A DNA stretch of 41,015 nt from a virus (taxonomy: Duplodnaviria; Heunggongvirae; Uroviricota; Caudoviricetes), in IMG/VR virus record IMGVR_UViG_2880389630_000006; one strand, written 5' to 3'. The notes below the pieces were generated by a model. That model saw only the letters and a list, made by a program, of their open reading frames with translations, had not been told where the DNA came from and did no database searches. Below are positions 3,176-35,386 of this stretch, one piece after another (within the stretch, counting starts at the first letter, position 1; every line of letters begins with the position of its first letter). Both the position numbers and the translations under genes were made by a program.

Positions 3176-5827
3176 TTATTTTGATTCCAATAGTTCGAGT
3201 CGCTCTTCAATACGATCGCATCGACGGCGCTGATATGCAGCCTCAAGCCAAGCGCACTGGTCAGGCCGTATACCCCATGAACTACCCGCTTTTTTAACCA
3301 GCCTCTGTTCTCCGGTGTCATATTCGACGGTGACCAACTCACCAGACGTATCGGTAATCTCTTTAGTCGCGATTACCGGCTCAAAAATATCATCCCACTC
3401 GTCATAGCAAAGAAGGCCAAATCTGGTTCCATCAATTCCGTGCGCCAAGAATACATCCCTTACCTGCTGAGCCATGACGCCAAAATGCCATCTGGCACCA
3501 TCGCCCTTCATGGATATAGCGTCGAGCCATCGATACGCCACAACAGAAATATCGCCCCAGGCATCAAGAATGCTGTCTCTATCAGAAGAAAGCATTTCAC
3601 TTAAATCTGATATTGCCTCGGGATTGGTTTTCAGCGTGGCATCTGATGAAACGGTTGGGGCATTTGCAAAGTAGGCGTCTTTAATACGAAACGATGCCTG
3701 ACCAAAATTATAGGTATTGTCAGCAAACGGGCGAAGACCTGTATCATAAAACCGCCAGCGTATGGTTCCTCCCAATGCTGTCGGGTCGCTGTTGCATGCA
3801 ATATCCACCGTGGTGGCAGACCTAAACACAGAAGAACTACCGCCCAATACCAAGCTATTTGCGCTAGCTGTAGCCTGCTGGTCAAGGACCAATATTTTCT
3901 GAGAGTTTGTAGTTGCACCGGCATATGATGATGCAGTGATGCGGTTTAATTGGTTTGTATCAGGATCTGCGTTTTGCTGAATGGTTAAGTTAGATGCCCA
4001 CTGTGCCGGTCGCTGGCGCACAAATACAAAGTCACCAGAAGGATTAGTTGCAACCAAATAACTAATGCCACTATCAGATGAATAATAGTTGACTATAAAA
4101 GTCTGATTATTCGCATTCAGTATTTCAACATATGTGCTGGAAGGGATTGCCACGCCAGATATATCAGCAATGCTGACAGTCCCTGTGTAAAAATTAAATG
4201 CCTTCTGACTCATCTCCTGCATATAGCGAAGAATTTCAGTCATGTTAGTGAACAACGTACCATCTACAGGGTTAACAATCCCCTTCGCACTACGGGGATA
4301 TACCCCAATGCTCGCGTGATCGATATCAAATCCGCGGTAAAGCCTGGATGCAGGTGTAAAATCGATAGCATCTTTATCAGTGGAGAAATCTTCGAAAATA
4401 ACCAAACCTGAATTGTAAGGTTCAGAGCCAGTTCTTTCCTGATGAATGTAAAGTGAATAAATGGATTTTCCATCCTGAGAAACACAAACGCCTTCATTTT
4501 CTATGCGAGTGACGTTCAATCCTGCGGCTTTCATTAAATCCATCATGGCCTGAGGATGAAGCATTGATTCAGTTCGCTTTGTACCGTCAGGGTTAAAAAC
4601 TTTGCTGCCCTGATATTCGTTATATCCTGCGCTTCCTGCCCCATCAGCTATGAAGCCGCCATAGCCGCAGACAAAGTAGTTATCACCTACCGCAATACCC
4701 TGACGCTTGTTGAAATAAGGCGCATAAGGTGAGGTGCTTTTAGTTACATACCCAACATCATGTAACGGCAGCGTTATAGTTGACAGGCGATTGAAACCAC
4801 TGTCGAACACTGCAAGTACAGTTCTTGTGATTTTCTGTCCTACTTCTGGCGCATTCTGCTCAACGAGCCATATACCTCTTCTGTAGCTGAACTGGTTGAA
4901 TAATCCAACATCATGGTTTTGTACAAGAGGCAGATTGCTTCCGTATAATGCCCCCTCCATATTAAATTCACGCAGTATTCCGTTTGTGTGACCAACAAAC
5001 ATTTTTTTGGGGCCATAGTCTGACGTAACCACGATTCCTTCAGCAGCGAAGCCTGGGCCGCCAGCCTGAACATAGAAATAACCTTGATAAATACCAGATA
5101 TGTTAAATACTGCGACGACATTATTCGTCTGTTTAGGCTCAAATGGATAAGTGATGTATATCAAATCTTCGCTAACGCAGAATCCTTGAGGATACATATA
5201 AGTTGCTGACGGGTTAGCAGCCATAATCGCATCATATTCAGGAAAAAGAAGCGGCATCGTAGCTACAATCTTTCTTTGGTGATTTGTAAAAATATCGTTT
5301 TTAGCGCTGTTAGGTGTAGGCGTTACACCTCCAGTAAAAAGATCATCAACATAACCTTTATTGACAGCATCGTTTCTGTCAGTGGCATTTGCTAGATTTG
5401 ATATCTTATTATTTTTTGCATCATAATAGTTAGCCAGAATGCTTGGTTTTATAAGTGCTAACCTCATCCATGAAAAACACTTTTGAATAAGCATTGTCAG
5501 TTTATCGAACGCGTCTTCATGTACCTCAGCGAAGAACTTACCCTGATTACGCAAATCAGTATCCTGCGTAACCGGGAGCTCTCGTGATATAGAAATATGA
5601 TAACCGTTAGCCAACGCCTTCGACAGAATTACATTACCGCCATTATATCCTCCAGCATTGGTTACTGTGTAGTCAGTATCCAGAACCAATTCTGTTACGT
5701 TCCCGTTCAGGTCAGACACCTGAACAACCAGGTCGGATTTTTTGAAAATACGGAAGGTATACGGAAATGATGTCGTAGCTCCGTTACCGGTGTATTCGTT
5801 GTGGTCAACTTCGGTTGAGACCGTCAT
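3176..5827 (-). CDS. Tailspike / tail fibre with C-terminal intramolecular chaperone (peptidase S74-like) domain
   Basis: 883 aa. C-terminus (GDISVVAYRWLDAISMKGDGARWHFGVMAQQVRDVFLAHGIDGTRFGLLCYDEWDD) matches the auto-cleaving chaperone domain of endosialidase/tail-fibre proteins. Central domain of unknown specificity. Confidence 0.8.
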   Translation of the reverse strand: MTVSTEVDHNEYTGNGATTSFPYTFRIFKKSDLVVQVSDLNGNVTELVLDTDYTVTNAGGYNGGNVILSKALANGYHISISRELPVTQDTDLRNQGKFFAEVHEDAFDKLTMLIQKCFSWMRLALIKPSILANYYDAKNNKISNLANATDRNDAVNKGYVDDLFTGGVTPTPNSAKNDIFTNHQRKIVATMPLLFPEYDAIMAANPSATYMYPQGFCVSEDLIYITYPFEPKQTNNVVAVFNISGIYQGYFYVQAGGPGFAAEGIVVTSDYGPKKMFVGHTNGILREFNMEGALYGSNLPLVQNHDVGLFNQFSYRRGIWLVEQNAPEVGQKITRTVLAVFDSGFNRLSTITLPLHDVGYVTKSTSPYAPYFNKRQGIAVGDNYFVCGYGGFIADGAGSAGYNEYQGSKVFNPDGTKRTESMLHPQAMMDLMKAAGLNVTRIENEGVCVSQDGKSIYSLYIHQERTGSEPYNSGLVIFEDFSTDKDAIDFTPASRLYRGFDIDHASIGVYPRSAKGIVNPVDGTLFTNMTEILRYMQEMSQKAFNFYTGTVSIADISGVAIPSSTYVEILNANNQTFIVNYYSSDSGISYLVATNPSGDFVFVRQRPAQWASNLTIQQNADPDTNQLNRITASSYAGATTNSQKILVLDQQATASANSLVLGGSSSVFRSATTVDIACNSDPTALGGTIRWRFYDTGLRPFADNTYNFGQASFRIKDAYFANAPTVSSDATLKTNPEAISDLSEMLSSDRDSILDAWGDISVVAYRWLDAISMKGDGARWHFGVMAQQVRDVFLAHGIDGTRFGLLCYDEWDDIFEPVIATKEITDTSGELVTVEYDTGEQRLVKKAGSSWGIRPDQCAWLEAAYQRRRCDRIEERLELLESK

Positions 5828-5930
5828 GTTAAATCTCCAGATAGTCGCAGCACCCGTTGCGCCGCATATCTGGTTATTCTATTACCTGGAAAACCACATA
5901 TGGATAGAAAGGCTGTAAATACGAATAGAT

Positions 5931-5947
5931 ATTACCTTTCAGGTAAT
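5931..5947. promoter_or_regulatory. 17-bp palindromic operator ATTACC-TTTCA-GGTAAT
   Basis: Perfect inverted repeat; same motif family recurs at the immunity region and other promoters (see findings). Confidence 0.55.
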
Positions 5948-5983
5948 TTGCAAAACGTGCTGGATAGCAAACAAATTATTTGC

Positions 5984-6003
5984 TACTGTATAAATATACA
6001 GTT
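5984..6003. promoter_or_regulatory. LexA (SOS) box
   Basis: TACTGTATAAATATACAGTT = CTGT-N8-ACAG with AT-rich centre, near-perfect match to the E. coli LexA consensus TACTGTATATATATACAGTA; lies 20 bp upstream of the ATG at 6023 and overlaps a TATAAA -10-like hexamer. Confidence 0.7.
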
Positions 6004-6022
6004 ATTGCATGGAGAAGATAAG

Positions 6023-6280
6023 ATGCAGCAGTATCACTATCCACTGGAAGACGGATTTACCGAAAGGATTCACACGCCGGGAGGCGTCAGGTCACTGGTG
6101 GAGGGATCGCACTTGATGAAATTACTCCGGGATCTCGATAAGGATGGATTTAATGTCGATGGCCCACTTGCCGAACTGACTGCACTGATTAACTACGTCA
6201 CCAGCTCACAGATGTCTATGCAGGATCTGCAAACACATCTCGACTATTGTGCCGAACAATTACGAAAACAAACCAGATAA
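6023..6280 (+). CDS. Small protein paralogous to the C-terminal domain of the downstream antirepressor; candidate LexA-controlled antirepressor
   Basis: 85 aa from ATG at 6023 with SD ggagaag; LLRDLDKDGFNVDGPLAELTALINYVTSSQMSMQDLQTHLDY aligns with LLNQLQDDGHDVSGAAAELTTMFCYIVGVSKCLRDIQTHAEY in the 6593-7279 protein. The longer track ORF from 5900 is rejected because it would run through the operator, promoter and LexA box. Confidence 0.6.
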   Translation: MQQYHYPLEDGFTERIHTPGGVRSLVEGSHLMKLLRDLDKDGFNVDGPLAELTALINYVTSSQMSMQDLQTHLDYCAEQLRKQTR

Positions 6281-6310
6281 GGTTTGCAATTACCAAGTGG
6301 AGTGCTTAAA

Positions 6311-6327
6311 TTTACCTTTGCGGTAAA
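6311..6327. promoter_or_regulatory. Operator-like palindrome TTTACC-TTTGC-GGTAAA
   Basis: Same 6-5-6 inverted-repeat family, in the leader between the small paralog and the Bro-N antirepressor gene. Confidence 0.45.
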
Positions 6328-6592
6328 TTTACATCGCACTCCTCTTGTGCCATAGTAATCAGGCACTGGCAAAATCCAGTGCCGGGATTGGCGTCCCGGG
6401 TTACTACAGAGGCACATATGCCGCATAAGCGGTTTTTTTATGTGTAAAGCGCACCTATTCTATGGTGGGCTGTGTGGGGGCACCGAAAGGTGCGCCGGGT
6501 CCTTTGTAGCCGGTTACGCCAACCCTGCACAGTTCACCACCAACCGATTGGCGTCGGTAGTGGTGATTAACCTAACTACAAAGGTGATCACT

Positions 6593-7279
6593 ATGACTGC
6601 TAACGTAACCCCATCTGTTTTTCATTTTGAATCAGAAGCAACCATTCGAGCCATTGTTATTGATGGAAATCCTTGGTTTGTTGCCAAAGACGTTATTAAA
6701 GCTCTTCAACTGACAAACCCCACTATGTCAATAAAATCTCTTGATGATGATGAAAGGGCTAAATTTAACTTAGGCCGTCAAGGCGAAACCAATATTATCA
6801 ACGAGTCAGGCCTCTACACACTGATCCTCCGCTGCCGCGACGCAGTGACACCAGGCACTATCCCCTACCGCTTTCGTAAATGGGTTACAGGTGAGGTTCT
6901 TCCTCAGATCCGCCGCACCGGAAGTTACATTAAAAACTCGCTCCCGCAGGAAGAACGCATAAAGATGGTTGCCGACCAGGTAGCCAACGCCACAGCATCA
7001 GCAGTGATGCAGGCAATGAAGATAGAGAACAAAACCTACAGCGCCCCACTGAAGCCCGGCTACCGCAGTCTGATTCATTCTCCGTCTGGTGTTCTCGGCC
7101 TGACGGAGAACTCACTGCTGATGAATCTGCTGAACCAGTTACAGGACGACGGGCACGACGTATCGGGTGCGGCGGCAGAGCTGACCACCATGTTTTGCTA
7201 CATCGTCGGTGTGAGCAAATGCCTGCGTGATATCCAGACGCACGCGGAGTACATCAACGACAAGGCAGGGTTCTTCTGA
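6593..7279 (+). CDS. Phage antirepressor, Bro-N domain family
   Basis: ATG at 6593 with SD aaggtga; N-terminus (IRAIVIDGNPWFVAKDVIKALQL...ESGLYTLILRCRDAVTPGTIPYRFRKWVTGEVLPQIRRTGSY) is Bro-N/antirepressor-like. Confidence 0.8.
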   Translation: MTANVTPSVFHFESEATIRAIVIDGNPWFVAKDVIKALQLTNPTMSIKSLDDDERAKFNLGRQGETNIINESGLYTLILRCRDAVTPGTIPYRFRKWVTGEVLPQIRRTGSYIKNSLPQEERIKMVADQVANATASAVMQAMKIENKTYSAPLKPGYRSLIHSPSGVLGLTENSLLMNLLNQLQDDGHDVSGAAAELTTMFCYIVGVSKCLRDIQTHAEYINDKAGFF

Positions 7280-7343
7280 CGAGCGGCGGCACAGGGATGT
7301 GCCTTTAAATAATTCTGTACAGATTGCAGGTGAATAGCTTACT

Positions 7344-7360
7344 ATTACCTCACGGGTGAT
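7344..7360. promoter_or_regulatory. Operator-like site ATTACC-TCACG-GGTGAT (one mismatch)
   Basis: Same motif family; right half GGTGAT equals the lambda operator half-site. Confidence 0.35.
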
Positions 7361-7447
7361 CCATAGCGATTAGGCACCGATACAGGAGGAGCCCACATGA
7401 GAAAATTTGACGAGTACGAAGGCGTTTAACATTCGGATAGTTTAATG

Positions 7448-7471
7448 ACGGGGCCATTAGGCCCCGTTTTC
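7448..7471 (+). terminator. Rho-independent terminator / possible attenuator
   Basis: Stem acggggcc/ggccccgt with loop atta, then TTTT; sits between a 10-codon micro-ORF (7397-7429, strong AGGAGG SD) and the GTG start of the 7489 gene. Confidence 0.7.
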
Positions 7472-7488
7472 ATGTCTGGAGACAGTTT

Positions 7489-8028
7489 GTGTTAAGTGAA
7501 GAAATGCAATTTGCCATGGCTGTGGCTCAAATCGTAAGTGCAGTCGCGGTTTCGCTTGGCTTGTTCATAGCTATCGCTACTATTATTTATAATGTAAATA
7601 CAGCGAGAAAAGTACACACTTCAGTATTCCTTGGTGAAAGCAGGTTTGATGTAGATTATAAGAAAGGCCTATCTACTATGCGCCGCATTCACGAATCGAA
7701 CAAATCATTCCGCTCTTATATGTATCCAAGCAATGGGCAGGCTGATCTTACGGATGAAGAAAAGACAGAGAAGAGAGAAATAATTTACTGTCTAGGTTTC
7801 TACGAACGCATGGCTGTGAGCGTGAAGCGGAAAACTTATGATGAGACCATGATTAAGGAAGTATTTTACAGCTCCGTTGTAAATAACTATCAGATTGCGC
7901 TACCTCTTATACAAGCCATTAGAGAAAAAGAAAACATAAACACATATTTTAAAGAATATGAATGGTTGGCCACACGATGGAAGGATTGCCCATTGAAGGA
8001 TAAATCCCCGTGGTACAAGTTTTGGTAA
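7489..8028 (+). CDS. Membrane-anchored protein of unknown function (AT-rich moron; candidate superinfection-exclusion or abortive-infection protein)
   Basis: 179 aa; GTG start with SD ggag 8 nt upstream (alternative ATG at 7504); single N-terminal TM helix (AMAVAQIVSAVAVSLGLFIAIATIIY) then a soluble domain; markedly AT-rich relative to its neighbours; opposite strand to the structural operon. Confidence 0.6.
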   Translation: MLSEEMQFAMAVAQIVSAVAVSLGLFIAIATIIYNVNTARKVHTSVFLGESRFDVDYKKGLSTMRRIHESNKSFRSYMYPSNGQADLTDEEKTEKREIIYCLGFYERMAVSVKRKTYDETMIKEVFYSSVVNNYQIALPLIQAIREKENINTYFKEYEWLATRWKDCPLKDKSPWYKFW

Positions 8029-8029
8029 G

Positions 8030-8052
8030 CCAGCGCTGCGGGCTTTTTTTTG
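8030..8052 (+). terminator. Probable intrinsic terminator after the membrane-protein gene
   Basis: GC-rich imperfect dyad (gccagcgctgcgggc) immediately followed by TTTTTTTT. Confidence 0.45.
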
Positions 8053-8123
8053 TGGACGAAACAAAAGTCAGTGCTACACTCATTGACGCCACATTGAGGT
8101 GGCTTATGGATGGAAATTTCACA

Positions 8124-8285
8124 ATGAAAAAAGCATTTGCTGCACTGTTCGTTTTGTTGTCTCTGGTAGCTTCAACTCAGGCCTTTGCCGGCCGTTGTCA
8201 GCACGACAGCGATACTGCCGCTGACGGCTCCCGCTGCGGTGGGCGTTCTGCGGATTCCCGCCCTGGCGGCGGTGGCATTCGTTAA
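8124..8285 (+). CDS. Possible small secreted Cys-containing peptide
   Basis: MKKAFAALFVLLSLVASTQAFA signal peptide then a 31-aa Gly/Arg/Asp-rich segment with 2 Cys; weak SD (alternative ATG at 8106). Speculative. Confidence 0.3.
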   Translation: MKKAFAALFVLLSLVASTQAFAGRCQHDSDTAADGSRCGGRSADSRPGGGGIR

Positions 8286-8308
8286 AAACAAGGCCGCGAA
8301 AGCGGCCT
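8282..8308 (-). terminator. Rho-independent terminator ending the minus-strand structural operon
   Basis: Perfect hairpin aggccgc-gaaa-gcggcct (8291-8308), followed on the minus strand by a T-run (plus-strand aaaaac at 8284-8289). Confidence 0.6.
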
Positions 8309-8320
8309 GTGACATGTCAC
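8309..8320. repeat. 12-bp perfect palindrome GTGACATGTCAC, copy 1 of 3 (function unknown)
   Basis: Exact sequence; lies between the lipoprotein stop codon and the terminator hairpin. Confidence 0.9.
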
Positions 8321-8323
8321 GAC

Positions 8324-8737
8324 TTATAAAGATGACTGATATTTTACAACTCTGTTCATGGCATCTTTTTTCACCGAGCTGATATCAGTTCTTATTTTGG
8401 CTTCGTCATTACTGCTTATCATGCTATTAATTTTTTGCACTGACATGCCGTTTCTTTCAGCCATTGCACATACAGCAGCATCGTATGAAGAACTCGCTGC
8501 GATGGATATCACCTTGTTACACTCAAACACAGCACCTTCAGCAATATCAGATGCCGATGAGGCTGGCTTGGTATAAGTCTTGACGTAGTGATCAATACAA
8601 CTATCCTTCGCCGTCTTGGCAAGAGAAAAATCCACTTTAACTTTGTCGCAATATGCCTTATCAACACCGTCATAAACATCATAGGATGTCGAGCAAGCGG
8701 ATATCAAAAATACCGATAACAGCAATAATTCCTTCAT
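8324..8737 (-). CDS. Lipoprotein, last gene of the structural operon (candidate receptor-masking or exclusion lipoprotein, or tail accessory protein)
   Basis: Lipobox LISAC after a signal peptide; SD aaggaac; 6 further Cys residues; immediately downstream of the 824-aa virion protein gene. Confidence 0.65.
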   Translation of the reverse strand: MKELLLLSVFLISACSTSYDVYDGVDKAYCDKVKVDFSLAKTAKDSCIDHYVKTYTKPASSASDIAEGAVFECNKVISIAASSSYDAAVCAMAERNGMSVQKINSMISSNDEAKIRTDISSVKKDAMNRVVKYQSSL

Positions 8738-25152: not shown

Positions 25153-25229
25153 GTGGCATTAGCTCAGTCGGACAGAGCAACCGCCTTCTAAGCGGTTGGT
25201 CGCAGGTTCGAATCCTGCATGCCACGCCA
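25153..25229 (+). tRNA. tRNA-Arg (anticodon UCU)
   Basis: Hand-folded cloverleaf: 7-bp acceptor stem GTGGCAT/ATGCCAC, D-arm gctc-agtcggaca-gagc, anticodon stem accgc/gcggt with loop CT-TCT-AA, T-arm gcagg-TTCGAAT-cctgc, discriminator G plus encoded CCA. Resembles but is not identical to enterobacterial argU. Confidence 0.85.
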
Positions 25230-34361: not shown

Positions 34362-34416
34362 GAATAGATATGAAAAGACCGCCGGATGGCGGTCTACAGA
34401 GGGTTGTTGCCAGATA

Positions 34417-34682: not shown

Positions 34683-34747
34683 TTCACCCATAAGGTAACA
34701 AAAATCAAGGATAGTTACCTATGGGGTGCATTTACCTGTTGGGTAAT
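34683..34747. promoter_or_regulatory. Immunity-region operator cluster (three 17-bp sites) with divergent promoters
   Basis: Sites TTCACC-CATAA-GGTAAC (34683-34699), GTTACC-TATGG-GGTGCA (34714-34730), TTTACC-TGTTG-GGTAAT (34731-34747) in the 154-bp gap between the Cro-like and repressor genes. Confidence 0.55.
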
Positions 34748-34801: not shown

Positions 34802-35386
34802 ATGAAAAGTATCCAGGACGTCCGCAGGCAAAATCTCAACGACTTGATCGACCGTGAATTCAATGGTGTTCAGACGCGGATGGCAGAAAAACTTGGAACT
34901 CAGGCAAATCTGGTAAACCGCTGGGCTCTTGGCAAGAAGGTTATCGGCGACCAGGTTGCGCGAAAAATTGAAGCTGCCGCCAATAAACCCCGTAACTGGC
35001 TTGATATCGATCGCTCGCTTTCTCAGGAAGGTTTTCAGCCTGTCGGCCCAAGCGACATTGGTCAGCTGGCAGCTCACAACCTGGAACGCTGGATGAGTGA
35101 AAGCCGCGACCTTTCAACTCAGGGAAAACTTCACCGCGCATCCGGCGTCGCCCAGGTGACAATCAGCCGCCTGTTAAACAATGAGGTCAGCGTTTCCATT
35201 TCCACCCTGGAGAATGTTGCATCCGCATTCGGGCGTCACGGATATGAACTACTGATTCACCCGCACGACCCTGCGACTATCAACTATGACCGCTCACGCT
35301 ACGCATTGTTACCCGAAACCGAGAAAGCAAAGATCGAAAGTTACATTGAATTTGTCATCAACCAGAACGAAAAAAACAAACAATAA
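34802..35386 (+). CDS. Prophage repressor, tandem HTH-XRE domains, no S24 peptidase domain
   Basis: Two HTH-like segments (GVQTRMAEKLGTQANLVNRW and ASGVAQVTISRLLNNEVSVSISTLENVASAF); no Ala-Gly/Ser-Lys autocleavage motifs; divergent to the Cro-like gene. Confidence 0.65.
   Translation: MKSIQDVRRQNLNDLIDREFNGVQTRMAEKLGTQANLVNRWALGKKVIGDQVARKIEAAANKPRNWLDIDRSLSQEGFQPVGPSDIGQLAAHNLERWMSESRDLSTQGKLHRASGVAQVTISRLLNNEVSVSISTLENVASAFGRHGYELLIHPHDPATINYDRSRYALLPETEKAKIESYIEFVINQNEKNKQ

Follow-up and report, generated by a model that had tools for sequence, protein, structure and literature searches.

The leader in front of the antirepressor gene of this prophage is most probably a control module of the P1/P7 immI type, in which a c4 antisense RNA blocks translation of ant and an IsrK-type RNA acts as its decoy. 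The window, that is, the whole analysed stretch of 41,015 nucleotides, is an epsilon15/phiV10-like (Uetakevirus) E. coli prophage, an integrated podovirus, and the leader fills the gap before the ant ATG (6593-6595), at positions 6281-6592 (310 bp). The operator, the two perfect adjacent hairpins and the GC-rich stem-loop that a preliminary description had recognised are all present where it placed them. Beyond these, the leader holds a terminator, a closing stem of 16 bp through which 6464-6541 forms a single compact RNA, and complementarity between c4 and both the ribosome-binding site of ant and the upstream hairpin region. The features, in order along the leader, are as follows.

6310-6328, no strand: operator palindrome, TTTACCTTTGCGGTAAA at 6311-6327, in full ATTTACC-TTTGC-GGTAAAT (ATTTACC-N5-GGTAAAT)
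6328-6356, plus strand: promoter-like site, -35 TTTACA (6328-6333), 17-nt spacer ending in TG, -10 CATAGT (6351-6356); 9/12 matches, with TG before the -10
6363-6439, plus strand: IsrK-type short RNA, equivalent of the P1 a1/b1 region, made up of hairpin 1, hairpin 2, a single-stranded linker and a terminator
6363-6382, plus strand: hairpin 1, GCACUGG-CAAAAU-CCAGUGC, perfect
6382-6399, plus strand: hairpin 2, CCGGGA-UUGGCG-UCCCGG, perfect, adjoining hairpin 1
6388-6394, plus strand: a1, UUGGCGU, hairpin 2 loop; complement of c4 a' (duplex -10.0 kcal/mol)
6404-6412, plus strand: b1, CUACAGAGG, linker; can pair with the c4 b' loop (duplex -13.9 kcal/mol)
6420-6439, plus strand: intrinsic terminator ending the short RNA, GCCGC-AUAA-GCGG plus U7, matching the 3' hairpin of the isrK model
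6458-6544, plus strand: c4 antisense RNA gene, full RF01695 match
6494-6514, plus strand: c4 hairpin II, the GC-rich stem-loop, GCCGG-GUCCUUUGUAG-CCGGU, with an 11-nt loop
6501-6509, plus strand: b', CCUUUGUAG, in the loop of hairpin II
6516-6522, plus strand: a', ACGCCAA, single-stranded between hairpin II and the closing stem, aligning with P1 a' CUGUCAA
6548-6554, plus strand: a2, UUGGCGU, target of a' (duplex -10.0 kcal/mol), in a small hairpin loop in the predicted fold of 6542-6600
6559-6566, plus strand: conserved box, AGUGGUGA, complement of the closing-stem 3' strand of c4
6576-6584, plus strand: b2, CUACAAAGG, perfect 9-nt (9/9) complement of b' (duplex -12.0 kcal/mol)
6593-7279, plus strand: ant, the regulated gene, encoding an antirepressor of 228 aa whose N-terminal domain is Bro-N

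The leader operator belongs to the dispersed-operator set of the prophage and sits at a promoter. Its motif, ATTACC-N5-GGTAAT, has 15 sites in the window, where shuffled sequences lead one to expect 1.08 and 0 of 100 reach that count; one site (34731-34747) lies between divergent HTH genes, and two others (35443 and 35505) flank the promoter TTGACA-17-CATAAT. Among Uetakevirus relatives, the half-sites of the leader operator are conserved and the spacer varies. The palindrome adjoins the -35 hexamer, with its centre about 44 bp upstream of the putative transcription start, and the 194-aa HTH repressor encoded at 34802-35386 is a candidate for binding it. The promoter-like site, TTTACA-17-(TG)CATAGT, a consensus-level match only, ends 6 nt before 6363, and transcription would start at G6363, judging from the isrK model, whose first position falls on this base, and from the Gifsy-1 homologue, which carries TTGACA-17-TATATT at an equal distance.

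The RNA starting there is recognised by the isrK covariance model of Rfam (RF01394), which matches 6363-6439 on the plus strand over its entire length (model positions 1-77 of 77) with 74.7 bits against a cut-off of 50 (E = 2e-15). The match takes in both hairpins at the 5' end, the linker, and the terminator hairpin with its U run, the terminator having also been found independently; in phiV10, a terminator is annotated at the equivalent place. Partial read-through of this terminator would be expected by analogy with Gifsy-1 (PMC4825925). The suggestion that the leader acts as an attenuator fits the terminator, which can split short from long transcripts and is attenuator-like in this respect, but not the tandem hairpins, which alone form no attenuator and are the 5' part of the IsrK-type RNA. 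The c4-a1b1 model (RF03163) covers some of the same bases (6350-6402) with 42.6 bits, just under its cut-off of 46.7, which is passed by P1, PA28, Sakai, and Gifsy-1.

Further downstream, the C4 model (RF01695) matches 6458-6544 on the plus strand from end to end (model positions 1-87 of 87) with 79.5 bits (cut-off 45; E = 3.3e-15). A mature RNA of 78 nt (6464-6541) is predicted from its alignment with c4 as annotated in P1. It would comprise the closing stem, a hairpin I with a GAAA loop, hairpin II and the unpaired a', and would end in ACC with A as the next base, so that an acceptor-like stem is followed by ACCA at 6539-6542. Its minimum free energy is -44.7 kcal/mol, with z = -4.3 on the plus strand and z = -0.14 on the minus strand against dinucleotide shuffles. 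The RNA spanning 6363-6600 folds at z = -4.4, so that the leader is structured beyond chance, as the preliminary description had supposed; the minus strand of the IsrK region gives z = -2.1. The same fold is found in all 11 c4 sequences compared (the window, P1, and nine other phages), and among 75 distinct sequences of the family 96.7% of stem cells are paired, with compensatory double changes in 15 of the 26 pairs. In P1, RNase P cuts c4 out of its precursor, making its 5' end, to give an RNA of about 77 nt, and by analogy c4 is probably excised from the leader here as well.

Several other assignments were considered for the same region. A tRNA-like gene in the leader was rejected, ARAGORN finding only a tRNA-Arg at 25153, and the weak Rfam matches to mir-9436, sroE, and rli43 are attributable to chance (E of at least 0.3, far below the cut-offs). 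No match to any P4-type Rfam family was found within 5000-8500.

Both segments of c4 that could recognise a target have complements on either side of it. The a' segment is perfectly complementary to a1 and to a2 (7/7 pairs each), which are identical to each other, while the b' loop pairs with b1 through eight Watson-Crick pairs and one G-U and with b2 without mismatch. Segment b2 overlaps the Shine-Dalgarno sequence of ant, AAGGUG (6581-6586), and ends 8 nt before the AUG, so that the window presents downstream a2/b2 targets, with b2 over the ribosome-binding site, and upstream a1/b1 copies of them. The proposal that the leader may encode a regulatory RNA or be targeted by one is borne out on both counts, by the two Rfam matches and by the complementarity of a' and b' to the leader itself. 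Pairing was judged by duplexes of loop against target together with covariation, since nested models miss loop-loop contacts. Indeed, RNAcofold, which is blind to such kissing contacts, returned a ddG of 0.0 for mature c4 with the ant leader, a value that weighs little either way, and of -1.4 for mature c4 with IsrK, no meaningful gain. The minimum free energy fold of 6363-6600 pairs the a1/b1 region in cis with the a'/b' region. In addition, the conserved box AGUGGUGA, which covaries with the c4 3' strand across IMG/VR loci, is complementary in the window to AUCACUAU around the ant AUG, and alternative structures of the mRNA before processing are probably formed through it. Elsewhere in the window, candidate c4 targets are unconvincing, with CTACARAGG at 1117 (minus strand) and 34394 (plus strand) giving two extra sites against 0.42 expected, and ATTGGCGT is not enriched.

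The regulated gene begins 51 nt after the predicted 3' end of c4. Its product matches PF02498 at 72.3 bits and phrog_130 (anti-repressor Ant) at 4.9e-56, and is 82% identical to ORF4 of phage vB_EcoP_ZX5, whose overexpression gave a prophage titre of 1e6 PFU/mL compared to 1e9 in the control (PMC9782041). The ORF directly upstream of the leader (6023-6280, 85 aa) is a free-standing copy of the Ant C-terminal domain; it has no Pfam match and no Arc/Mnt-like annotation. Between c4 and ant, no icd-like ORF with a ribosome-binding site is found in the window, nor in most other loci of the family. Coding ORFs through c4, of the "Ash family" or orf45 type, were also considered and rejected: those at 6440-6592 and 6472-6567, and the CDS annotated as "ash family protein" in ZX5, have no Pfam or NCBIfam matches. 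The ORFs through c4 in the window either have no Shine-Dalgarno sequence or stop 23 nt short of ant, and coding is further argued against by the b' loop, where 1-3-nt indels between close relatives would shift the frame.

Comparative evidence comes from 101 unique IMG/VR loci with IsrK hairpins, from which b' loops were extracted by profile alignment. In 98 of them c4 is also present, mostly about 100 nt from the IsrK start, and these 98 loci carry 56 different b' loops. The cognate b'/b2 complementary run averages 7.8 nt, compared to 3.9 nt for non-cognate pairs, and the cognate b'/b1 run 6.9 nt, compared to 3.3 nt; for neither was the observed value reached in any of 10,000 permutations. Over the 56 loops, the cognate b2 is a perfect complement of median length 8 nt, usually ending 7-11 nt before the ATG, and b2 lies over the Shine-Dalgarno sequence in nearly all loci. 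The a segments change in concert too: among relatives, a2 covaries with a1 and a', GGCGU going with CGCC and GGUCU with GACC. Within the Uetakeviruses alone, the matched b'/b1/b2 sets fall into three alleles and the matched a'/a1/a2 sets into two, the b' allele of phiV10, for example, being CCUUUUAG rather than CCUUUGUAG. Taken from these sequence comparisons, the b box is the specificity determinant, close relatives carrying different, internally matched alleles. The isrK-then-C4 tandem with an antirepressor-type gene behind it is found in phiV10, Tyrion, phiv142-3, PA28, VT2-Sakai, Gifsy-1, and APSE-7, and the tandem also occurs in Hafnia yong2 and Moraxella Mcat4, where the gene that follows carries no antirepressor annotation. 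P1 itself gives a c4-a1b1 match and a C4 match, and does not reach the isrK cut-off.

For processing, read-through and the direction of regulation in this prophage, the following course of events would be expected. The operator-controlled sigma-70 promoter would start transcription at about 6363, and many transcripts would end at the terminator, yielding a 77-nt IsrK-type RNA that exposes a1 in a hairpin loop and b1 in the linker, while read-through transcripts would extend into c4 and ant. From the latter, c4 (approximately 6464-6541), folded with a long stem resembling a tRNA acceptor and an ACCA 3' end, would probably be excised as in P1. Its a' segment would then pair with a2 and its b' loop with b2, and since the latter duplex would cover the Shine-Dalgarno sequence, ribosomes could not start on ant and no antirepressor would be made. 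The a1/b1 copies of the IsrK part, whether within the long transcript (in cis) or on the separate short RNA (in trans), would compete for the same c4 segments, and the balance between short RNA, c4 and ant mRNA would therefore set Ant production.

The nearest precedent for this arrangement is the immI region of P1 and P7, in which c4 (RF01695) acts with icd and ant (Citron and Schuster 1990, as cited in PMC7313666 and PMC12197685). The order of operator, promoter, a1, b1, sense-strand c4, a2, b2 at a ribosome-binding site and antirepressor is the same, as is the c4 fold, which leaves a' unpaired and puts b' in the loop of hairpin II, and matched box changes set specificity as in the heteroimmunity of P1 and P7. 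However, unlike P1/P7, no icd ORF is found here and b2 covers the Shine-Dalgarno sequence of ant itself; compared to P1, Ant is a 228-aa Bro-N protein instead of Ant1/Ant2, isrK matches the a1/b1 region in full, with a terminator hairpin and seven U, the operator is a palindrome of 17-19 bp, those for C1 in P1 being annotated as monovalent 17-bp sites, and the phage is an integrated podovirus rather than a plasmid-borne myovirus.

The second precedent is the isrK-orf45/STnc1160-anrP locus of the Salmonella prophage Gifsy-1 (RF01394; PMC4825925). It likewise holds an isrK-C4 tandem directly before the antirepressor, with the same a1/a'/a2 sequences (UUGGCGU/ACGCCAA), the same spacing from promoter to start, both putative in the window, and a terminator-ended short RNA with partial read-through, the last presumably shared by the window. 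There, the compensatory mutants G28A/C162U and G31A/C159U (Table 1D of PMC4825925) prove the pairing of a1 with a', a check of the numbering placing G28 and G31 in a1 and C162 and C159 in a', and IsrK supplied in trans switches on translation of the antirepressor. Hfq binding of isrK RNA and this trans activation are known only for Gifsy-1 (PMC4825925). The two loci differ in their b boxes (the Gifsy-1 loop is UCGGUGAU), and the Gifsy-1 locus, instead of adjoining a tail fibre gene, follows antQ in the late-regulatory region of a lambdoid phage and lacks the ATTACC-N5-GGTAAT operator. Moreover, the mechanism proposed for it invokes a translated orf45, which has no conserved counterpart in the window.

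In the APSE phages of Hamiltonella, which are also short-tailed and temperate, an isrK sRNA, a C4 sRNA with a' and b', and then a BRO-N gene have already been annotated, together with a region upstream of that gene that matches a'/b' (PMC7313666; LR794149). Unlike here, both boxes are different (APSE b' is CCUGUUUAG and a' is UGCGAA), as are the genomic neighbours, DNA polymerase and VRR-NUC. The P22 immI region (sar, arc, mnt, ant) resembles the window in that a small RNA blocks antirepressor translation at the ribosome-binding site, as c4 most probably does here. However, sar is an opposite-strand cis-antisense RNA, whereas the RNAs of the window lie on the same strand as ant and would act by short loop complements, and no Arc/Mnt homologues were found beside the ant of the window. 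Finally, P4 CI RNA (seqA/seqC) and N15 CA RNA are processed leader RNAs that pair with repeated complementary sites up- and downstream, as c4 probably is, a parallel that the Gifsy-1 authors draw (PMC4825925), but these cause transcription termination, whereas the downstream site here is the Shine-Dalgarno sequence of the regulated gene.

These precedents suggest different readings of the leader. In the cis-only, riboswitch-like model drawn from Gifsy-1, which is considered unlikely here, the long transcript is silent because the middle of IsrK pairs with the c4 region, a short IsrK opens it in trans, a uORF through c4 is coupled to ant, and no separate c4 repressor exists. For Gifsy-1 it is backed by native gels with two conformers, toeprint-type data, and effects of orf45 stop codons (PMC4825925), and in the window by the cis pairing of a1/b1 with a'/b' in the fold of 6363-6600 and by the conserved box, able to pair with the c4 3' strand or the ant start region. 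The same authors invoke alternative cis structures and a coupled 45-codon uORF rather than a processed c4-like repressor; a1 mutations in cis raise basal translation there (PMC4825925), which a simple decoy would not predict. The P1/P7-type reading also has to accommodate that, without an icd-like ORF, the indirect repression of ant known from P1, by way of icd translation and polarity, cannot be the same step here, and that the c4-a1b1 match is sub-threshold. Against the cis-only model, the "orf45" region of Gifsy-1 is itself a full C4 match of 69 bits, the substitutions in it are compensatory in RNA stems, and a stable processed RNA, STnc1160, has been seen at the homologous position in Salmonella Gifsy-1. 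Nor does this model require b' and b2 to covary as strictly as they do at the Shine-Dalgarno sequence of ant, and the b' loop indels and the unsuitable ORFs through c4 in the window argue against a coupled uORF.

Control mainly at the level of transcription, as by P4 CI RNA and N15 CA RNA or through P1-like Rho polarity, would have the pairing of a1/b1 and a2/b2 lead to premature termination and an incomplete ant mRNA, and is held to be very improbable. The Gifsy-1 paper compares IsrK to P4 seqA/CI and reports that IsrK in trans also raised a transcriptional fusion 8-fold, but the translational effect, 139-fold, was far larger (PMC4825925). The terminator of the window directly follows a1/b1, and the P1 annotation states that icd is apparently required for ant expression. 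In P1, polarity follows the translation block. In nearly all loci b2 ends 7-11 nt before the ATG, over the Shine-Dalgarno sequence; a translation block would place it there, but termination control makes no such demand. No terminator-like site lies between c4 and ant. As for the comparison with P22 made in the preliminary description, a sar-type small RNA from the minus strand, spanning the ant ribosome-binding site and the leader and pairing with ant mRNA over its full length, hardly deserves credence. The region does lie next to a tail fibre gene, P22 immI also sitting beside its tailspike/tail fibre gene, and palindromic hairpins would fold on the other strand too, as in the IsrK region. 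However, no promoter-like site is found on the minus strand of 6281-6600, the isrK and C4 matches are on the plus strand only, and the minus strand of the c4 region folds no better than shuffles. G-U pairs, frequent in the stems across the family, become A-C mismatches on the other strand, and the lack of a Pfam match or Arc/Mnt-like annotation for the upstream ORF counts against it as well.

The P1/P7-type reading makes the IsrK/c4 leader a known phage control module, with no new kind of mechanism. A broader view, put forward tentatively and perhaps somewhat less likely to hold than to fail, is that IsrK and c4 are two halves of one widespread three-RNA switch, in which a short, terminator-ended a1/b1 decoy titrates a processed a'/b' antisense RNA that otherwise blocks a2/b2 at the ribosome-binding site of the antirepressor. 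The hypervariable b box of 8-10 nt would serve as a rapidly diversifying immunity barcode; in this prophage, the operator near -44 would wire the switch to the main repressor, and the upstream copy of the Ant C-terminal domain could modulate Ant. A 2025 review treats IsrK (Salmonella Gifsy-1) and c4 (P1/P7) in separate sections without linking them, and the Gifsy-1 paper likens IsrK to P4 CI RNA, c4 going unmentioned in its available part (PMC4825925). The three-way covariation also suggests that "orf45" of Gifsy-1 is a c4 RNA.

For the epsilon15/phiV10-like phages, the published analysis of lysis and lysogeny covers only the repressor and antirepressor proteins (PMC9782041), and phiV10, ZX5, Tyrion, and phiv142-3 have been deposited with the leader unannotated or filled with small spurious ORFs, such as the "ash family protein" over c4. 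The three-way covariation over 56 specificities provides clean comparative support for the pairing model of P1. Recognition of the c4/IsrK module supplies a missing control layer in these phages, and predicts which related phages would be heteroimmune at this locus.

By every criterion testable in its sequence, the non-coding gap at 6281-6592, the leader of the Bro-N antirepressor gene ant, is a member of two RNA families: C4, the antisense RNA of P1 and P7, and isrK, a short RNA located 5' of c4. An Rfam scan of 5000-8500 returned two full-length matches above the curated cut-offs, both on the plus strand. The elements that the preliminary description had pointed out in this gap, namely an operator, two perfect adjacent hairpins (6363-6382 and 6382-6399) and a GC-rich stem-loop (6494-6514), are all present. 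They are not due to chance, since the operator motif occurs at 15 sites against 1.08 expected, and the leader RNA, whose folding had been proposed as a check, folds far better than shuffled sequences (z = -4.4). The two hairpins thus correspond to the 5' portion of an IsrK-type RNA, and the stem-loop represents c4 hairpin II. In Rfam, this upstream element has two separate models, isrK and c4-a1b1, the former placed outside the C4 clan.

Features of the ant leader and its surroundings
3176-5827, minus strand: tail fibre gene
6023-6280, plus strand: 85-codon ORF
6311-6327: operator TTTACCTTTGCGGTAAA
6328-6356: promoter-like site TTTACA-17-(TG)CATAGT, its -35 hexamer directly adjoined by the operator and its 3' end six bases upstream of isrK-match position 1
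6350-6402: c4-a1b1 motif (RF03163), 42.6 bits, slightly below the cut-off of 46.7
6363-6439, plus strand: isrK (RF01394), 74.7 bits, cut-off 50
6388-6394: a1, UUGGCGU, loop of the second hairpin, upstream of c4
6404-6412: b1, CUACAGAGG, linker 5' of the terminator, pairing with b' including one G-U
6420-6439: intrinsic terminator of the IsrK-type RNA, GCCGC-AUAA-GCGG plus U7, absent from the preliminary description
6458-6544, plus strand: C4 antisense RNA (RF01695), 79.5 bits, cut-off 45
6501-6509: b', CCUUUGUAG, hairpin II loop of c4
6516-6522: a', ACGCCAA, single strand of c4
6548-6554: a2, UUGGCGU, perfect complement of a'
6559-6566: conserved box, AGUGGUGA, between a2 and b2
6576-6584: b2, CUACAAAGG, perfect complement of b'
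6593-7279, plus strand: ant, Bro-N protein (Pfam Bro-N, PHROG)

From its alignment with the annotated c4 of P1, mature c4 should span 6464-6541. Its predicted fold (-44.7 kcal/mol, z = -4.3; z = -0.14 for the opposite strand) is closed by a 16-bp stem and contains two hairpins, I (GAAA loop) and II (loop of 11 nt), then an 8-nt single-stranded segment 3' of hairpin II, and a 3' end consisting of an ACC tail followed by A. Among the targets of its pairing segments, b2 extends into the ant Shine-Dalgarno sequence, its 3' end lying 8 nt upstream of the AUG. Duplex energies between the c4 loops and the targets lie between -10.0 and -13.9 kcal/mol. With RNAcofold, whose model is unable to represent loop-loop contacts, c4 and its targets showed no net stabilisation. 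Two extra b1-type copies (CTACAGAGG) lie outside the module, at 1117-1125 on the minus strand and at 34394-34402 on the plus strand, the latter immediately 3' of an immunity-region hairpin. This small excess (two extra versus 0.42 expected) is probably due to chance, and the copies could also be additional c4 targets.

The conserved box, located about 17 nt 3' of c4, shows the consensus (A/G)GUGGUGA in the window and the IMG/VR loci (L011-L130). The box can base-pair with the 3' strand of the stem that closes c4, and the two covary across the IMG/VR loci (GTTCGCCACC with GGTGGCGAT, GGCTACCACC with GGTGGTAGC). In the window, an alternative pairing joins the box to AUCACUAU around the ant AUG. 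This suggests that the unprocessed mRNA may adopt mutually exclusive structures, which would agree with the two conformers reported for Gifsy-1 (PMC4825925).

The same arrangement recurs in other phages. An isrK match followed by a C4 match was found in all nine other loci fetched by similarity (phiV10, Tyrion, phiv142-3, Hafnia yong2, the Stx phages PA28 and VT2-Sakai, Gifsy-1, APSE-7, and Moraxella Mcat4), with an antirepressor-type gene next in seven of them (not so annotated in yong2 and Mcat4), and P1 shows c4-a1b1 and C4 matches. The c4 fold is alike in all the phage loci compared, and b', b1, and b2, judged by eye, change together between phages. The a boxes are likewise matched (CGCCAA with UUGGCG, GACCAA with UUGGUC, UGCGAA with UUCGCA).

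Pairing segments b', b1, and b2 in other phages
phiV10: b' CCUUUUAG; b1 CUAAAAGG; b2 CUAAAAGG
phiv142-3: b' CCACUUAG; b1 CUAAGUGG; b2 CUAAGUGG
APSE-7: b' CCUGUUUAG; b1 CUAAACAGG; b2 CUAAACAGG
P1: b' UCACUAAC; b1 GUUAGUGC; b2 GUUAGUGA

A scan of IMG/VR for the IsrK hairpin pattern gave at least 120 loci. Among the matches listed, c4 is present in 98 of 101 unique segments, mostly about 100 nt past the IsrK start, with at least 56 distinct b' loops, and the 3' end of the cognate b2 usually lies 7-11 nt upstream of the ATG. The longest perfect complement of b', again among the matches listed, has a mean of 7.8 nt (median 8) in the downstream leader of its own locus versus 3.9 nt in those of other loci, and 6.9 versus 3.3 nt in the IsrK linker; when the locus assignment was permuted, none of 10,000 permutations reached the observed sum for either region. 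In the c4 stems, 15 of 26 pairs show compensatory double changes, and 96.7% of cells are paired (75 distinct sequences).

The preliminary description had drawn an analogy to P22, where an RNA of the sar type is made from the opposite strand. As far as sequence can tell, this is excluded: both the Rfam matches and the fold are specific to the plus strand, the c4 stems contain G-U pairs, and the minus strand of the leader holds no promoter-like site. A purely cis mechanism, with a uORF translated across c4, is unlikely here, given that the b' loops of near-identical relatives differ by 1-nt indels and that the translations match no protein family. Action of c4 by termination, of the kind known from P4 and N15, may contribute secondarily, but it leaves the constant position of b2 on the Shine-Dalgarno sequence unexplained.

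The isrK locus of Gifsy-1 has been dissected genetically. According to that study (PMC4825925), the isrK promoter drives the antirepressor gene anrP; the IsrK terminator stops most transcripts, some read through, and the read-through mRNA is translationally silent, anrP translation being raised 139-fold by IsrK in trans. A stable processed RNA, STnc1160, is made downstream of IsrK, and the orf45/STnc1160 region (1495-1680 of the Gifsy-1 locus, L003) is a full C4 match of 69 bits in our Rfam scan. The AUG conserved in the c4 5' flank corresponds to the initial AUG of orf45. With the numbering of the paper verified against its AUG positions 107 and 120, the compensatory pairs G28A/C162U and G31A/C159U reported there map exactly to a1 (26-32) and a' (158-164), so that a1-a' pairing is experimentally proven in a homologue. 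The double mutants still exceed wild type by a factor of 50-80 (Table 1D), a level that, in our inference and not the authors', the c4 model predicts, because a' no longer matches a2. The study also reports that a1 mutations in cis raise basal translation, which a simple decoy model does not account for.

The window locus probably works in the same way as P1/P7 immI and Gifsy-1 isrK-anrP. The P1 annotation shows the same order of C1 operator, promoters, a1, b1, c4, a2, and b2, the last at the icd ribosome-binding site. Unlike P1, the window lacks icd, so ant itself would be targeted; its antirepressor is of the Bro-N type, its operator is palindromic, and the isrK model matches its a1/b1 region in full, down to a terminator hairpin with a run of seven U, whereas P1 falls below the cut-off of that model. 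Transcription would start near 6363, from a promoter with the operator at its -35 region. Termination at 6420-6439 would yield the short IsrK-type RNA, as in Gifsy-1, and read-through would produce c4 and the ant mRNA, with c4 presumably cut out of the transcript as in P1. The a' and b' segments, whose complementarity and covariation with a2 and b2 are observed, would then mask the ant Shine-Dalgarno sequence, and a1 and b1, which pair with c4, may compete for it.

Copies of the palindromic operator (ATTACC-N5-GGTAAT) are scattered throughout the prophage, at 2719, 5931, 6311, 7344, 15541, 24815, 27993, 28011, 30065, 32338, 32400, 34346, 34731, 35443, and 35505, a regulon of many operators that recalls P1 C1. 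Since these sites include the gap between divergent HTH genes (~34.7 kb) and the flanks of an early-type TTGACA-17-CATAAT promoter (~35.48 kb; sites at 35.4-35.5 kb), the binder is probably the main repressor, a 194-aa two-HTH protein (34802-35386). At the leader promoter, repression is the simplest expectation, because the operator centre lies ~44 bp upstream of the putative start; activation is also possible. A second copy of the operator/-10/start segment of the isrK promoter lies 3' of ant (7327-7470, plus strand; operator ATTACCTCACGGGTGAT at 7344-7360, CATAGC at 7362-7367). After it come AGGAGG, a strong Shine-Dalgarno sequence, an ORF of 10 codons (MRKFDEYEGV, 7397-7429), and a hairpin resembling a terminator (7450-7465) with a T run, just 5' of a DUF4760 gene (7489-8028). 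This region, which has no Rfam match, looks like a second repressor-controlled leader.

Annotations of APSE phages already include this architecture, with isrK, c4 with a'/b', and a BRO-N gene next to one another (PMC7313666). A 2025 review gives IsrK and c4 as separate systems (PMC12197685), the module is unannotated in the epsilon15/phiV10-like phage records examined, and the ZX5 study (PMC9782041) does not mention it. In deposited annotations, 'ash family protein' CDSs cover the isrK/c4 region of ZX5 (948-1061 of L131) and Hafnia yong2 (988-1671 of L006). The 37-aa ZX5 product matched no Pfam or NCBIfam model and is thus probably a spurious call on an RNA gene.

The surroundings of the leader are 92-98% identical to Uetakevirus, the epsilon15/phiV10-like E. 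coli podoviruses (phiV10, TL-2011b, vB_EcoP_ZX5, and Phi05_1387 B), and their local gene order agrees with that of the phiV10 record: a minus-strand tail fibre gene, a small hypothetical gene, an annotated terminator, and a Bro-N 'anti-immunity' gene. The ant product scores 72 bits against Pfam Bro-N and 4.9e-56 against the PHROG 'anti-repressor Ant' family, and is 82% identical to ORF4 of ZX5, whose overexpression gave a prophage titre of 1e6 PFU/mL versus 1e9 in the control (PMC9782041). The 85-aa ORF product is a stand-alone paralogue of the Ant C-terminal domain (40% identity over 78 aa, E = 2e-15; both match phrog_450). Its homologues are phiV10p24 and epsilon15p19, and a perfect operator copy, ATTACCTTTCAGGTAAT, lies upstream of the ORF (5931-5947); the product could modulate or mimic Ant. 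The tail fibre matches the N-terminal domain of the T7 tail fibre weakly, below the cut-off, and ends in a Peptidase_S74 domain (the endosialidase intramolecular chaperone). The middle of the protein is unlike that of phiV10, the DNA match ending at the gene start, which suggests a swapped receptor-binding module.

Within Uetakevirus alone, three b alleles and two a alleles are found, each matched internally. A determinant of immunity specificity would be expected to show this pattern, as has been published for P1 and P7 (review: PMC12197685).
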